Made by a program: the position numbers and the translations under genes
DNA from: an uncultured Candidatus Saccharibacteria bacterium
GTDB taxonomy: Bacteria > Patescibacteriota > Minisyncoccia > Phycocordibacterales > SBAW01
Direction: 5' to 3'
NCBI GenBank assembly: GCA_964459335.1
Contig: CAYWJX010000001.1
Location: forward strand, 33,642 to 97,641
DNA length: 64,000 bases
Shown here: piece by piece, positions 29,663 through 56,767 of the stretch
Layout of the letters: the number at the start of each line of letters is the position of its first letter
How positions within the stretch are numbered: position 1 is the first letter of the stretch
The notes under the pieces: generated by a model
The model's input: only the letters and a program-made list of their open reading frames with translations
Told to the model about the DNA's origin: nothing
Databases searched by the model: none

Positions 29663-30976
29663 TTATAACCCCATTTCTTTGTTGCGAAGTTTCCGATGAT
29701 ACGCAATCGCAAAACGATGAGCCTCCGCGTTGGCGAGCAAGATGTCGTGTTCGTGGCCAGTGATAACTCCCCTGTCGCCTTGTATCGCCCGCGGACGATG
29801 CTTGTCGTCTTTGGTGACACCAACCACCGGTATGCGGACGCCGAACGAGGCGAGCACTTTGTCGGCGGCATTAAGCTGAGCCGCACTGCCATCAACCACA
29901 ATAATGCGGGGGCTCGGCCACTCGTTGTGCGCCAGGCGGCGCGAGAGCATCTCGCGCAAAGCTCCAATGTCGTCGCCAGCGCCTGCGGCTTTGATTTTAA
30001 ATTTGCGGTACTCGTTTTTGAGCGCCGTGCCATTTTCGACAACGGTCATCACGCCCACCATCGCACTGCCGCCCAAATGTGCCGCGTCGTAAGCCTCGAT
30101 TCGTGTCCCGCGAATCGCCCCGAGGGAAGTCGAGGGGCTACGAAATTCTTCTTTTATCAAAGAGATATCTTGGATGTGCTTAAGCGCAAATAGTTGGCTA
30201 CGTAACTTGGCCGCCTCTTCAAACCGCTCGGCTTTTGCAAGCTTTTTCATGTCGCGCTCGAGCGATTTTATCAACTCACTTTTTTTACCTTGAAAGAGCA
30301 TCACGATGCGGCGCACAATTTTGCGATACTCTGTTTTATTAATCGCGCCAGAACATACGCCAGGGCACAATCCTATCGCGGCGTTAAAACAGGCTTTGGT
30401 ATGTGGTGTACACGTATCGCGGTACGGAAATATCTTTCGGATAATTTTTAAAGCTTCTTTGAGTTGCGCGCCGTGTGGAAATGGACCAAATGTATGAGCA
30501 GCAGGAAAAGCTCGCGGCTGTTTATGCACGAGCGCAGAAAAATCCTGCGTCTGCTCACCTTGGCAGCTCGCAGCGTGAGCCGCCACAGAATTTTTCTGCG
30601 CTAATTCCTTTCCTCTCACTAACAACACTCTTGGAAAATCCTCTTTAGTAACAACTACGTAGTTCCACGATTTGTCGTCTTTTAAATCGGTGTTGTGTTT
30701 GGGTTTGTGGCGCTTAATTAAATTGGCCTCGAGTATCAACGCCTCCAAAACCGAGTCGGTTGCACGCCACTCGATGCTCGCGGCTTTTTTAACCATCTCG
30801 ACAATGAGCGGCCCGCGCGAGCGGTGGAGGTCGGCGGCAAAGTAGCTGCGCACGCGGCTGCGCAAGCTGGTGGCTTTGCCGATGTACAAGATTTTTTTAC
30901 GCGCATCCAAAAAAAAGTACACACCCGGCCCATCGGGCAAAGTACTCATCCGTTTTTTAAACTGCTCAAGCGTCAT
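29663..30976 (-). CDS. uvrC: Excinuclease ABC subunit C (short form lacking the C-terminal (HhH)2 domain), with an in-frame element of about 23 aa
   Basis: The N-terminal GIY-YIG domain (GPGVYFFLDARKKILYIGKATSLRSRV) and the RNase H-like endonuclease domain (IEAYDAAHLGGS) are present. The inserted peptide is VAAHAASCQGEQTQDFSALV. Confidence 0.9.
   Translation of the reverse strand: MTLEQFKKRMSTLPDGPGVYFFLDARKKILYIGKATSLRSRVRSYFAADLHRSRGPLIVEMVKKAASIEWRATDSVLEALILEANLIKRHKPKHNTDLKDDKSWNYVVVTKEDFPRVLLVRGKELAQKNSVAAHAASCQGEQTQDFSALVHKQPRAFPAAHTFGPFPHGAQLKEALKIIRKIFPYRDTCTPHTKACFNAAIGLCPGVCSGAINKTEYRKIVRRIVMLFQGKKSELIKSLERDMKKLAKAERFEEAAKLRSQLFALKHIQDISLIKEEFRSPSTSLGAIRGTRIEAYDAAHLGGSAMVGVMTVVENGTALKNEYRKFKIKAAGAGDDIGALREMLSRRLAHNEWPSPRIIVVDGSAAQLNAADKVLASFGVRIPVVGVTKDDKHRPRAIQGDRGVITGHEHDILLANAEAHRFAIAYHRKLRNKEMGL
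30532..30601. repeat. Hairpin element copy A (core variant 1) inside uvrC
   Basis: The inverted repeat gcgcagaaaaat / atttttctgcgc flanks the core tgctcaccttggcagctcgcagcgtgagc. The uvrC reading frame is preserved through it. Confidence 0.7.
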
Positions 30977-30985
30977 AGGCTTATC

Positions 30986-33589
30986 TTATACCCCCTTGAG
31001 AGCTCGCTTAAGATATTTGCCGGTGTGCGAGTGTTTGTTGTTGGCAACCTCCTCCGGCGTGCCTTTAGCCACTAAGTTGCCGCCGCCGGCACCGCCTTCG
31101 GGGCCAAAGTCGAGGATATAGTCGGCATTTTTAATAATGTCCATGTTGTGCTCGATAAGCACCACCGTGTTGCCGGCATTAACCAACCGGTTGAGGATGT
31201 CGATGAGTTTTTGCACGTCCTCGTAATGCAAACCAACCGTCGGCTCGTCGAGCAAATAAATTGTCTTTTGTAAATGCGGGCGGTAGAGCTCGGCGGATAT
31301 TTTGACACGCTGTGCCTCGCCTCCCGAGAGCGTTGTGGCGCTTTGGCCGAGCTGTAAATACCCCAAACCCACCTCGTCGAGCGTTTTGAGGCGGTCATAC
31401 ACAGCGGGGATGTCTTCAAAAAACGCGAGCGCCTCCTCAACGGTCATCGAGAGCACCTCAAAAATATTTTTGTGTTTATATTTAACCTCGAGCGTCTCCT
31501 TCATAAACCGCTTGCCGTTACACACATCGCACGTGACATACACCGTGGGCAAAAAGTGCATCTCAACCGCAATCGTGCCGTTGCCTTCGCACGCTTCGCA
31601 CCGCCCGCCGTTGCGCGCTTGCGGCACGTTAAACGAAAAACGCGAGGCCTTCCATCCGCGAGCGCGCGCCTCGGTGCTTTCGGCAAAAAGCTCGCGGATA
31701 AACGAAAACGCGCCGGTGTAGGTGGCCGGGTTGGAGCGCGGCGTGCGGCCGATGGCGCTTTGGTCGATTAAAATAGCGCGATTGAGGCGCTCGGTGCCGG
31801 TAAAACTCGCGGCGTTAAATGTTTTATTGCTGCGATATTTTTTGTCGAAACGCGCACGCAAATTTTCGTACAAAATTTCGTACAAAAAGGTCGACTTGCC
31901 CGAGCCCGACACGCCGGTGATGGCCGTGAGCCGCCCGAGCGGCACCTCGGCTGAGAGATTGTGTATGTTAAATGCATGGCCGCCTTTTATCTCAATTGCA
32001 CCTTTGTCCTTAACCCGGCGCTCATCCGGCACGGCAATCGCCTTCTCGCCGCGCAAGTATGCGAGCGTCACCGAGTCGCTGTCATTTTTTTTGGCGGTCA
32101 GCAATTTTTCGAGATAATCCGCCACCACCACGTGCCCGCCATGCACGCCCGCGCCCGGCCCGATGTCTACCAAGTAATCGCCCGCATAAATAGTGTCCTC
32201 GTCGTGCTCAACCACGATAATCGTATTGCCCAAGTCGCGCAAATTGACGAGCGTTCTTATCAGCCGCTCGTTGTCGCGCTGATGCAAACCGATGGTCGGC
32301 TCGTCGAGCACATAGAGTGCACCCACGAGCCCCGAGCCGAGCTGGGATGCAAGCCTGATGCGCTGTGCCTCGCCGCCGGAGAGCGTATTGGCGCGGCGAT
32401 TGAGCGTGAGATAGTCGAGGCCGACGTCGAGCATAAACTTGAGGCGCGCGCTTATTTCTTTAATAACTGTTTTTGAAATCTCCTGGTCTTTTTTGGAGAG
32501 GTCGAGCAACTCAAAATAATCAAACGCGTCTTGTATCGAGAGATTTGTTATCTCAACAATACTTTTTTTGTCCGTCTCACTCAAAAATACGTTGAGTGCC
32601 TCGGGGCGCAGGCGTTTGCCATGACACACCGGACACGGCTCGTTAGTCCAAAAATGTTTAGTGCCCAAGCCATTGCATGCCGGGCAAGCGCCATAGGGCG
32701 AGTTAAATGAGAATAGGCGCGGCTCAACCTCAGGGAACGAAAATCCGTCGTACGCGCACATAAACTTTGCCGAAACCAACCGCGTACCGGTGGTATCTTC
32801 TACTTCCACCAAGCCATCGCTTTCGGCAAGCGCACGCTCCACGGCCTCAGAAAGCCGCTCATATACTGCGGCTTTCTGCCCTGAGCTTGTCGAAGGGCGC
32901 CTAAAATCTGCCACCAATATTTCATCAACCAGTGCTGAAATGTTGTGCTTTTTGTGCTTGGCCAAAATAATTTGCTCGCGCAAGCTCACGGTTTTGCCGT
33001 CTATTTTTGCTTTTTCAAACCCTTTGCCGAGGAGGTCGTACAAAAGTTGGTAGTACTCGCCTTTGCGGCCCACCACCACCGGCGCAAAAATTTTAACGGT
33101 GTCGTCGTTAATCTCGACATCCATAATTTTGCGCGTTTTTTTGGGCGCGGCTTTGGTAACGGTTTCGACAATACTCGCAATAATCTCCTCGTTGCTGTGC
33201 TTTTTAATTTCGCGACCACAGACCAAACAGTGCGGTTTGCCGACGCGCGCGTAGAGGATGCGCAGATAGTCGTAGATTTCGGTAATCGTCGCCACGGTTG
33301 AGCGCGGATTGTTGGAGCGGCTTTTTTGGTCGATAGAGATTGCCGGTGAGAGGCCGGTGATTTCTTCAACATCGGGCTTTTGCATCTGGCGTAAAAACTG
33401 CCGCGCATAGGCCGAGAGACTTTCGATATAGCGGCGCTGACCTTCGGCAAAAATGGTGTCGAAGGCAAGCGAAGACTTCCCCGAGCCTGAGAGCCCGGTA
33501 AAAATAATCATTTTATTGCGCGGGATGCTCAAAGAAATATTTTTGAGATTGTGCGTCTTCGCGCCTTTGATTGTGATGTGATCTTCCAT
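30986..33589 (-). CDS. uvrA: Excinuclease ABC subunit A
   Basis: Two ABC ATPase modules ([12 protein letters not shown] and [11 protein letters not shown] Walker A), zinc-finger Cys clusters and LSGGEAQR signatures. 867 aa. Confidence 0.95.
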
Positions 33590-33842
33590 ATGTTGTTTAC
33601 CTTAGCCTCTTTCTGCAATGCGCGGTACACAAATTTCTGTGGACAAACGCCATAATAGCCCCGAGGCATGTCCTAGGGGTTATCTATGTCACTTTAGTAT
33701 AACAGAAACAGAGAGGGGCGCACGCTTGAAAGCGCGCGCCCCAAGGCCCGGGGACCAACGAGCGACCCGGACCTCTCACCGGGGGTGGTAAGTCCCCAGT
33801 GGAACGTTCTGCAAGATACAATACACAGATTGATGATTATTG

Positions 33843-56298: not shown

Positions 56299-56371
56299 AC
56301 GAAAAAAGTTATTTAATAAAGATATCTCAGTATGCCGACATCTTCATGTGGTGTAGATGAAGAGCTCAGCT

Positions 56372-56677
56372 TTACTTCTCTCCGGACAGCATCTGCGCGG
56401 TTTGCTCTTTGAGTGCCTTTTCTATCCGGCCTTCAAACATCCGCATCATGAGGGGGAGTTTTGCGTTGATATCAAACACCGTGTCGCGCACCTCGAGCGT
56501 GCCACCAATGCTTTGCCCTTGGATGTCGGCCACAAAGTTGAGCGTGTCGCCTACCCACTCCTCCTTTTCGATCTTCGCTTTGTCGCCAAGATGCGGGCGC
56601 ATTTCAATAAGTGCGGCTTTAACGCGAGCCGTCGCCTCGGTTTTGGTTTTAAACTTGTGCGGGATGTCTAGATGCAT
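56372..56677 (-). CDS. Polyhydroxyalkanoic-acid-system (PHA_gran_rgn)-like small protein, tentative
   Basis: About 100 aa. The N-terminus MHLDIPHKFKTKTEATARVKAAL fits that family pattern, but the assignment is weak. Confidence 0.35.
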   Translation of the reverse strand: MHLDIPHKFKTKTEATARVKAALIEMRPHLGDKAKIEKEEWVGDTLNFVADIQGQSIGGTLEVRDTVFDINAKLPLMMRMFEGRIEKALKEQTAQMLSGEK

Positions 56678-56693
56678 AGGTTTGTTAGTATAT

Positions 56694-56767
56694 CAAAAAA
56701 ACAGAAATTTGATTTTGTGAGCGCTGCGAGCTGCCAAGGGGAGCAAAATTAAACTTTTGTTTTTTTG
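56694..56767. repeat. Hairpin element copy F (core variant 2, opposite orientation to E), intergenic
   Basis: The inverted repeat caaaaaaacagaaatttgattttg / caaaattaaacttttgtttttttg (3 mismatches) flanks tgagcgctgcgagctgccaaggggag. The arms are related to those of copy E. Confidence 0.7.

Follow-up and report, generated by a model that had tools for sequence, protein, structure and literature searches.

A family of small hairpin-forming repeats, named family 1 here, is spread over genes and intergenic regions of a 64,000-nucleotide (nt) stretch of contig CAYWJX010000001.1 from an uncultured Candidatus Saccharibacteria bacterium (assembly GCA_964459335.1, positions 33,642 to 97,641); this whole stretch is called the window throughout. 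Each element is laid out as an A-rich arm, a GC-rich centre of 26 nt and a T-rich arm. It measures 62–84 nt, folds into an AT-rich stem of 20–29 bp closing a 26-nt loop and has no coding capacity of its own. The stems vary from copy to copy and remain complementary, whereas the centre is, by comparison of orthologous copies, under constraint. We give an about even chance to the reading that these are small palindromic repeat elements acting as a single-stranded hairpin, the loop of which is read by a trans-acting protein.

A 16-nt core, TTGGCAGCTCGCAGCG, matches the window exactly six times, at 30560, 34671, 37644 and 52329 on the plus strand and at 34591 and 56722 on the minus strand; 0.10 matches are expected, and none of 100 shuffled windows reached six. 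The original prediction had reported the same six copies and had placed each core in the loop of a long hairpin. Inverted repeats indeed flank all six cores, and every hairpin folds better than 200 of 200 shuffled sequences (z-scores of −3.3 to −7.1). The shared core itself stands, but not its predicted length of 16 nt: the invariant centre spans 26 nt and comes in two forms, variant 1 (CTCACCTTGGCAGCTCGCAGCGTGAG) and variant 2 (CTCCCCTTGGCAGCTCGCAGCGCTC(A/C)). A search for further window copies that tolerated three mismatches in an 18-mer added none, so that the combination of identical cores and different stems in the window is not an effect of ascertainment. The six copies are as follows.

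30531–30602, plus strand: variant 1, in frame in uvrC (core 30560–30575)
34566–34633, minus strand: variant 2 (copy A), in frame in uvrB (core 34591–34606)
34643–34712, plus strand: variant 1 (copy B), in frame in uvrB (core 34671–34686)
37618–37683, plus strand: variant 1, in frame in tgt (core 37644–37659)
52299–52372, plus strand: variant 2, intergenic between convergent genes, perfect 24-bp arms
56693–56768, minus strand: variant 2, intergenic, 18 nt downstream of the stop codon of the open reading frame (ORF) 56786–57556 (minus strand)

The uvrC copy is read antisense to the core as AAHAASCQGEQ and has orthologues in the loci L052, L027 and L060. In uvrB, about 12 nt separate copy A, which has perfect 21-bp arms and encodes APLGSSQRSQ, from copy B, which encodes THAASCQGEY; the orthologue of copy A in L052 matches the centre at 26 of 26 positions and the arms at 68%, and L007 uvrB has no counterpart of it. 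The tgt copy is read as DAHAASCQGEQ, its weaker outer pairing reaches 37594–37695, and the same site is also filled in L007, L035, L051, L052 and L066. A common peptide AHAASCQGE, predicted for all variant-1 copies of the window, is thus found in uvrC and tgt, while uvrB reads THAASCQGE. Of the two intergenic copies, the first provides with its final 3 nt the stop codon of ORF 52370–53014 (minus strand) and ends 5 nt from a hairpin of another family (family 3, described below); the second has three mismatches between its own arms and orthologues in L054 and L068 with the centre identical at 26/26. These two had been given one arm sequence in common; the arms are related but different, with TAGAAAAGCAAAAGTTTAATTTTG on one side of one copy facing TCAAAAAAACAAAAGTTTAATTTTG in the other. 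At the 3′ end of ORF 56786–57556, 25 nt from the second intergenic copy, we also observed a 13-bp hairpin with a 16-nt loop (TGCGAAACATCCC...GGGATGTTTCGCA, 56793–56834), which is kept in a relative (L054, 797–838).

Copies outside the window were retrieved by exact core match. Among these and the window copies, 44 of variant 2 could be aligned without gaps around an invariant centre. Conservation reaches at least 90% in the inner stem (ATTTTG / CAAAAT) of this alignment; the remaining stem follows an A-rich consensus with recognisable subfamilies that are common to different loci, and the outer ends of the arms are its least conserved columns. The variant-1 arms of different genes share a loose pattern that is conserved in register. 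Because the intergenic arms share an A-rich consensus, which ends in ATTTTG, and the variant-1 arms the loose pattern just mentioned, the stems are, on alignment evidence, diverged homologues that travel with the centre. The original description of the stems as copy-specific and unique is therefore right in that the arms differ and overstated in that they are homologous across loci. Pairing is retained during this divergence: 89.7% of stem cells in the variant-2 alignment are paired, both-sided changes occur in 23 of 26 stem pairs, and the covariation score is 0.58 as compared to 0.15 in shuffles and 0.11–0.18 in controls in which the alignment was slid. Two-sided changes number 262 cells in total, where shuffles give about 74 and sliding the alignment makes the signal collapse; this bears out the suggestion made from the window sequence that the hairpin is selected while its stem drifts in a compensated manner.

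For the centre, we made a comparison with contig Ga0182030_10003115 (L052 and L068), which is syntenic with the window at 75–90% identity and has positional orthologues of five of the six window copies. In these five pairs the flanks, mostly coding, are 75–90% identical and the arms 65–87%, and the centre is identical at 26/26 positions in each: no change is seen where about 25 would be expected under flank-like divergence. The set is not biased by the way in which copies were discovered, because it includes every window copy with a positional orthologue in the relative. As an independent sample gathered by protein similarity we inspected 120 Tgt orthologues, 16 of which carry family 1 at the same site; eleven of the 16 have the intact core peptide, four have one recurrent 1-nt variant (AASGQG) and one is changed further. 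The corresponding core variant CGCTGCGAGCGGCCAAGG is found in L039 (3679–3752) beside a standard core and in Tgt and RecG orthologues of several lineages, and probably represents a subfamily rather than random decay.

An exact search with the 18-mer in one genome per species yielded 35 loci, and a metagenome scan 39 more. In ten of the 35 species-level loci the core lies within the loop of a long hairpin. Nine of these belong to metagenome-assembled genomes (MAGs) labelled Paceibacterota, Adlerbacteria, Minisyncoccia or 'Saccharibacteria'; the tenth (L011, 568–645), from a MAG labelled Acidobacteria, has AT-rich flanks and closes its loop with a third kind of stem, GTTTG...CAAAC, an occurrence that could reflect either a misbinned contig or transfer of the element from one phylum to another. 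No hairpin surrounds the 18-mer in 25 GC-rich genomes, as chance matches would have it. Two matches in viral contigs are likewise GC-rich chance hits that lack a hairpin, and an origin from phages was rejected. Altogether we catalogued 57 distinct hairpin copies from many independent assemblies. The closest named relatives of the window Tgt are Paceibacterota and Adlerbacteria, and judged by these occurrences family 1 is specific to Adlerbacteria-like Paceibacterota, a lineage of the Candidate Phyla Radiation (CPR). The density is low, with six copies per 64 kb in the window and one or two exact copies per representative MAG, and adjoining elements are frequent; L039, for example, has two family-1 copies 3 nt apart. 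Rfam returned no family at its gathering threshold and only generic microRNA-like hairpins, far under their cut-offs, at a permissive one. In the literature covered, which excludes subscription journals, the core sequence appears in no paper and no palindromic in-frame elements are described for CPR bacteria, Patescibacteria or Parcubacteria.

About 35 of the 57 are intergenic, and in 31 of 35 of these a stop codon is at most 50 nt away and often overlapped by the copy; 13 lie between convergent genes and only one between divergent genes. About 21 copies are in frame inside long ORFs, at no fewer than nine distinct sites in protein linkers: uvrC, uvrB (two), tgt, a TsaD-like gene (assigned by eye), recG (three) and a gene for a 567-amino-acid protein. 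All 12 copies of variant 1 are intragenic.

We found an asymmetry between the two strands of the stem. On the strand carrying the core, core(+), 32 mismatches read as A·C and 3 as G·T, the former corresponding to G·T wobbles on the opposite strand, core(−); these counts are partly dependent and inflated by common descent, since subfamilies share mismatches, and the direction is consistent. The ratio of A·C to G·T is 21:2 in intergenic copies, 7:1 where the host mRNA is core(+) and 4:0 where it is core(−). When the centre was replaced by a neutral loop, the stem was more stable on core(−) in 28 of 33 mismatch-bearing copies and on core(+) in one; perfect stems showed no difference in stability between the strands. 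Since the wobble bias is the same whichever way a host gene runs, the folded strand is a property of the element and not of host transcription or replication, and wobble compatibility limited to one strand therefore points to a strand-specific single-stranded form. Neither an orientation by replication strand (core against GC skew 23:27, with local skew a weak proxy and loops that flip) nor one by transcription strand (core against main coding strand 11:10) was observed.

Among the alternatives, the one that survives best is a hairpin with a host function in RNA: a structure at the 3′ end of mRNAs, the loop of which binds a protein in termination, stabilisation or processing, with the intragenic copies as spill-over. 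A conserved loop on a covarying stem would be expected of such a structure, as would the position of 31 of the 35 intergenic copies by stop codons and the constraint on the centre of each copy; moreover, in one-directional contexts core(−) lies on the transcript of the upstream gene in 12 cases and core(+) in 5. Against this, the wobble bias tracks the orientation of the core even when the opposite strand is in the host mRNA (the 7:1 class), the loop flips between orthologues without losing its conservation, and over a third of the copies lie within coding sequence. We consider an RNA function doubtful on balance. An intrinsic terminator, which has a GC-rich stem, a loop of 3–8 nt and a U tract, was rejected: the AT-rich stem of 20–29 bp and the loop of 26 nt do not fit one, and a scan of the window calls other, canonical GC-rich terminators and not these hairpins.

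Comparison of related loci reveals how copies are gained and inverted. At the uvrB site, L007 and L075 are empty (...RPVTGG-ASQLS-QVQDFL...), and the uvrB genes of the window and L052 exceed them by 132 nt, which corresponds to two complete hairpins with both arms; the idea that uvrB had received insertions, raised in the original prediction, is borne out by the empty L007 site. In the intergenic region at 52 kb the family-1 hairpins of the window and of L068 are located on opposite flanks of a third hairpin, of family 3, and each empty position differs from the filled one by a whole hairpin of 74–78 nt. At a first site in recG the filled allele is 20 residues longer than the canonical allele, which is present in 97 of 120 orthologues. 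As far as these alignments go, the inserted unit is the whole hairpin. Once inserted, the loop can be found in either direction: the Tgt orthologues read it as LGSSQR in six cases and as AASCQG in five, and the tgt loops of the window and L052 are in opposite orientation. Because both readings interleave on a tree built from the Tgt protein outside the insert linker, the segment between the arms inverts repeatedly. Within a gene such a flip recodes the peptide from AHAASCQGE to AHLGSSQRE; the flip probably follows as a side effect of having inverted repeats.

The linkers that accept family 1 also accept other sequences. In the 120 Tgt orthologues (P0001–P0120) the linker after GFQVFSLG is 'empty' in 55, and other recurrent inserts (such as EQNGL...RGPFEKK, GRDEHDPNS and EKSG...DPRGLF) are interleaved on the tree. 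The RecG linkers (P0121–P0240), one N-terminal and one at a site before PHLLSMTATPIPRT, likewise hold varied inserts, and EKSG...DPRTFSE, KVLGSP..., SWGPVHLS and S.DI.RDESRL recur in addition in Tgt or RecG linkers. By their alignments, the Tgt and recG linkers are hot spots with fast turnover. Several of the other inserts look palindromic when the protein is back-translated, and further hairpin families and favoured insertion sites may therefore be numerous. We also noted an apparent core-deleted Tgt allele at the protein level (P0077).

A signal of the host at the DNA level, such as an uptake sequence, a mark for chromosome organisation or a modification or restriction site, could be presented by a hairpin or cruciform without regard to orientation. 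It would account for a centre that is conserved in both orientations and in coding as well as non-coding sequence, and for copies in DNA-repair genes; in Neisseria, uptake sequences are over-represented in genes for genome maintenance, frequently with two of them in inverted arrangement. However, copies are sparse in the window and in the representative MAGs, the strand asymmetry of the stem contradicts a purely double-stranded mode of action, several unrelated loop families coexist, and the fast turnover at linkers resembles insertion and loss rather than a placed signal, which makes this explanation improbable.

Loss of copies is visible in recG, where L039 and L050 differ by two polymorphisms of exactly 51 nt each, the length of one arm plus the centre. 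KKE[VA]R[IVL]PHLL, without an arm, is what the closest relatives and the canonical orthologues have at site 1; the L039 allele there (KKKAGIVPLPHLL) is hence left over from a former copy. The site-2 copy, EQKFPATHLGSSQRELHKISAP, is both ancient and widely distributed, and HDISAP in L050 is the arm that stayed behind. On this outgroup comparison both differences are in-frame deletions of arm and centre that leave a solo arm. Since the two arms at site 2 share the direct repeat AAAATTTC, replication slippage is a plausible cause of the second loss.

These alleles bear on the proposal that only the loop is mobile and that stems are made at insertion by inverted copying of the target, for example through snap-back synthesis; an inverted duplication of the target had been suggested in the original prediction. 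A polymorphism of 51 nt whose residual arm lines up with the opposite allele, as seen twice here, is what such a process would leave; some arms have outer ends that are site-specific and yet palindromic, the net lengths of Tgt inserts fall below the hairpin length, and a snap-back model fitted even the wobble bias. Yet in the 120 RecG orthologues the outgroups turn both differences into secondary deletions and the second copy into an old one, clean empty sites differ by the whole hairpin, and arms are homologous across loci; the DNA of an empty Tgt allele, strongly diverged, has no clear homology to an arm. We therefore regard inverted copying as very improbable.

The three host genes of the window are open across all inserts, and the prediction that the four intragenic copies keep the reading frame was correct.

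29663–30976, minus strand: uvrC, short form, 437 amino acids, with the Pfam domains GIY-YIG, UVR and UvrC_RNaseH; hosts one copy
33843–36014, minus strand: uvrB, 723 amino acids, Protein Data Bank (PDB) match with E = 1e-238; hosts two copies
36744–37997, minus strand: tgt, 417 amino acids, PDB match with E = 1e-100; hosts one copy

On solved structures the UvrB and Tgt insert sites are loops or linkers: compared with UvrB 9gy7_E, the pair of uvrB copies lengthens the protein by 46 residues, placed between 429 and 430, and the insert-bearing linker of Tgt stands in place of residues 115–119 of 6ygm_A. Two observations concern these genes beyond the elements. The C-terminal helix-hairpin-helix region was not detected in the window UvrC, and the L027 and L052 orthologues are similarly short; L060 uvrB (1245–1352) has another in-frame insert, of 106 nt and without the family-1 core, at the site of 34566–34712 in the window.

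Intragenic copies are without exception read in the LGSSQR frame or, when flipped, as AASCQG. Of 34 generic intergenic copies, 18 have the PLGSSQRS frame open and 16 the PWQLAA frame; a stop-codon filter was thus rejected as the cause of single-frame use, the other frame being equally often open. Because one frame is used in spite of other open frames, the peptide appears to be exposed to selection and the inserts to be translated, not removed. As an alternative for the single frame we infer a coding-adapted subfamily, variant 1, that spreads from gene to gene. That the hairpins are taken out of the mRNA like introns, or skipped in translation, is an idea invited by compact and stable hairpins in essential genes, for which direct support was nil; it is scarcely credible in view of the preserved frame and the lack of stop codons in all intragenic copies, whichever way the loop faces and across at least nine independent sites, and of the single frame used though others are equally open in generic copies. 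Finally, a fixed short sequence between inverted repeats can come from hairpin adapters or amplification chimeras, but an assembly, adapter or chimera artefact can safely be dismissed, as the same core-in-hairpin design stands at orthologous sites in NCBI MAGs of several studies, in JGI/ENA assemblies and in independent samples from different projects and assemblers, with compensated arm divergence between relatives, intact ORFs and no hairpin at the GC-rich matches.

The design is not limited to family 1: a hairpin scan that was independent of the loop sequence revealed at least two more families built in the same manner.

13066–13123, plus strand: family-2 hairpin with the loop core CCCTCGTCATCGGATGCGC, in frame in atpG (ATP synthase gamma subunit, 12799–13818, minus strand)
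13546–13615, minus strand: second family-2 hairpin in atpG, loop reversed, in frame
11334–11390, minus strand: family-3 hairpin with the 31-nt loop GGTTAGACTTGGCCTAGCGGCCCGGAGTGCA, intergenic, just 3′ of atpD
52202–52293, plus strand: family-3 hairpin with a diverged loop, adjoining the family-1 copy at 52299

Family 2 has unrelated stems and is present in L046 and L057 too. Family 3 also occurs in L065 (6412–6442), L068 (282–312) and L035 (5935–5965), is intergenic and is adjacent to family 1 at 52.2–52.4 kb of the window, with 5 nt between them, and in L065 and L068. Unlike family 1, the family-3 loop at 52.2 kb of the window has diverged from its L068 orthologue.

Having weighed these alternatives, we return to the reading of family 1 as palindromic repeats with a protein-read loop. 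The functional form would be the single-stranded core(−) hairpin, in which the centre is exposed unpaired; its loop would be the sequence-specific recognition site for a trans-acting protein, with the stem merely presenting it, and each loop family would have its own partner. As the comparisons show, copies persist just 3′ of stop codons or in frame in flexible linkers, where they are read as extra peptide. After insertion the arms change fast and stay complementary while the centre remains unchanged and is repeatedly inverted, and copies disappear when an in-frame deletion removes the centre together with one arm. The partner is most likely the enzyme that copies the element; our guess is a single-strand DNA transposase or nickase of the HUH type, which we favour because such genes are common in these genomes. 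A broader proposal would be that of loop-defined mobile hairpins, in which a loop of 20–30 nt alone is sequence-specific and is read by a cognate single-strand DNA enzyme, leaving the stem free to evolve, and in which several loop families, each paired with an enzyme of its own, continually colonise, flip and vacate the same linkers of essential CPR proteins; we put it forward tentatively and think it unlikely as it stands.

A gene for an enzyme of this type does lie in the window, between uvrB and tgt, together with a palindrome of its own.

36020–36739, minus strand: Y1 (HUH) transposase gene, IS200/RayT-like, Pfam Y1_Tnp score 31.2 bits (cut-off 23)
36042–36065, 36243–36266, 36501–36524 and 36718–36741: the palindrome CTTGGGAGTTnAACTCCCAAG of the Y1 gene, 21–24 nt

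The protein has the HUH motif NHFHLLL and a candidate catalytic tyrosine in SVYVNLN; with the NCBIfam RayT model it scores 21.6, the cut-off being 80. The enzyme family has 2,213 matches in Patescibacteria. At this position the gene is missing in L052 and L007, and in DATKGU it is located upstream of uvrB. CTTGGGAGTTnAACTCCCAAG is placed upstream, twice in frame inside the Y1 ORF (LGSLTPK) and over its 3′ end, and is found at the same four positions in the Y1 homologues L079–L081, which are 66–79% identical; in-frame internal copies of a transposase's own hairpin are unusual. By its domain content the window Y1 is a candidate for the type of hairpin-acting enzyme only.

Several points weigh against the protein-read loop, in addition to the partial dependence of the mismatch counts. 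The window Y1 was rejected as the mobiliser of family 1, as the palindrome it carries is a different one and its immediate flanks contain no family-1 copy, and neither the Y1 gene nor CTTGGGAGTTnAACTCCCAAG was found in the other ~0.5 Mb examined; no enzyme, the window Y1 included, is linked to family 1. The orientation of IS200/IS605 elements (palindrome-associated transposable elements, PATE) is tied to the replication strand and that of family 1 is not. Junctions at empty and filled sites fall in A/T runs or diverged linkers, and no target-site duplication is readable. Core decay is under-sampled outside the window, because copies there were found by exact core match, and the recurring 1-nt variant AASGQG exists. 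In addition, a purely selfish element would leave the perfect centre in static orthologous copies unexplained, so that a function of each copy or frequent conversion would be needed.

Two features of the window lie apart from the hairpin families. A lower-GC stretch at about 18600–28000, by a tRNA cluster (Ala, Pro, Val, Ala), is from its gene content a probable integrated element with the following components.

18710–18952: GIY-YIG ORF
20084–21637: large serine recombinase
22612–23517: tyrosine integrase
24453–24565: LOOT RNA (RF03000)
24795–27416: AAA_13/AbiEii-like ATPase
within the same stretch: DUF488 gene

The tRNA-Val gene (19945–20021, minus strand) is overlapped at its 3′ end by a hairpin at 19900–19951, whose 24-bp stem is perfect and whose loop has 4 nt.

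A large part of bacterial diversity belongs to the CPR, whose proteins are noted for lineage-specific insertions that have gone unexplained. At least some of these, namely those described here for UvrB, UvrC, Tgt, AtpG, RecG and a TsaD-like protein, are translated palindromic repeats with a quick turnover at a small number of tolerant linkers, and they can mislead alignments, phylogenies and structure predictions of CPR proteins. The invariant cores are handy clade markers for metagenomes, and a design that implies recognition of a single-stranded loop offers a route to a new pair of element and enzyme. If the proposal of loop-defined mobile hairpins were true, such elements would be a major source of lineage-specific insertions in CPR proteins.

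Family 1 can be compared to several known systems. Miniature inverted-repeat transposable elements (MITEs) and Correia elements are likewise short, non-coding, repeated, hairpin-forming and co-transcribable with neighbouring genes. In these, however, terminal inverted repeats bound by a transposase are kept and direct target duplications are made, whereas the ends of family 1 are its least conserved part, and no larger element with family-1 arm ends was seen among the loci examined. Repetitive extragenic palindromes (REP), in bacterial interspersed mosaic elements (BIMEs) or REPINs and with their associated RAYT transposases, resemble family 1 as hairpins that often cluster and lie for the most part 3′ of genes, and the window contains a RayT-like gene. 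On the current view a Y1/HUH enzyme recognises the single-stranded hairpin that one REP strand forms, and the family-1 stem is strand-biased as well. The REP stem is conserved and its loop variable, the opposite of family 1; RAYT genes are flanked by their own REPs, whereas the window Y1 and L079–L081 are flanked by CTTGGGAGTTnAACTCCCAAG and not by family 1; and REPs are extragenic, in contrast to the many intragenic family-1 copies.

With respect to a possible mode of action, the closest match may be the nick-site hairpins of rolling-circle replicons (CRESS-DNA viruses, plasmids of the pT181/pMV158 type), as an analogy and not as membership: these too present a conserved loop on a variable stem as single-stranded DNA read by an HUH enzyme. 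They occur once per replicon by a rep gene, whereas family 1 has dozens of chromosomal copies, and we saw no rep gene adjoining any family-1 copy and no iterons. Protein-binding RNA stem-loops (the iron-responsive element, the histone 3′ stem-loop, the coat-protein operators of phages) combine a covarying stem with a loop that does not vary and are frequently located in 3′ untranslated regions; their orientation in the transcript is fixed, unlike that of family 1, which occurs in both orientations and has a wobble bias that ignores transcription. Hairpin flip-flops of chloroplasts and intragenic invertons share with family 1 a segment between arms that is found in both orientations among close relatives; the switching of invertons is catalysed by an invertase within a population, whereas the family-1 flip is known here from the relatives compared. 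DNA uptake sequences occur about once per kb, far more densely than family 1.

In its behaviour family 1 fits best with the palindromic elements of Rickettsia (RPEs), with the pattern of conservation reversed. Both are small palindromes of bacteria with reduced genomes, translated in frame in housekeeping genes at tolerated surface positions; several families coexist in both, and no transposase is known for either. RPEs are about 100–150 bp long and conserved over their whole length. Family 1 differs in its shorter elements, in the conservation of the centre only, in its CPR host and in its mostly intergenic location by stop codons. The original prediction had held that a conserved loop with a variable stem is unlike RPEs, REPs and Correia elements, and the design is indeed their reverse; to our knowledge, an invariant loop on a covarying stem is the reverse of every well-described family of bacterial repeats.

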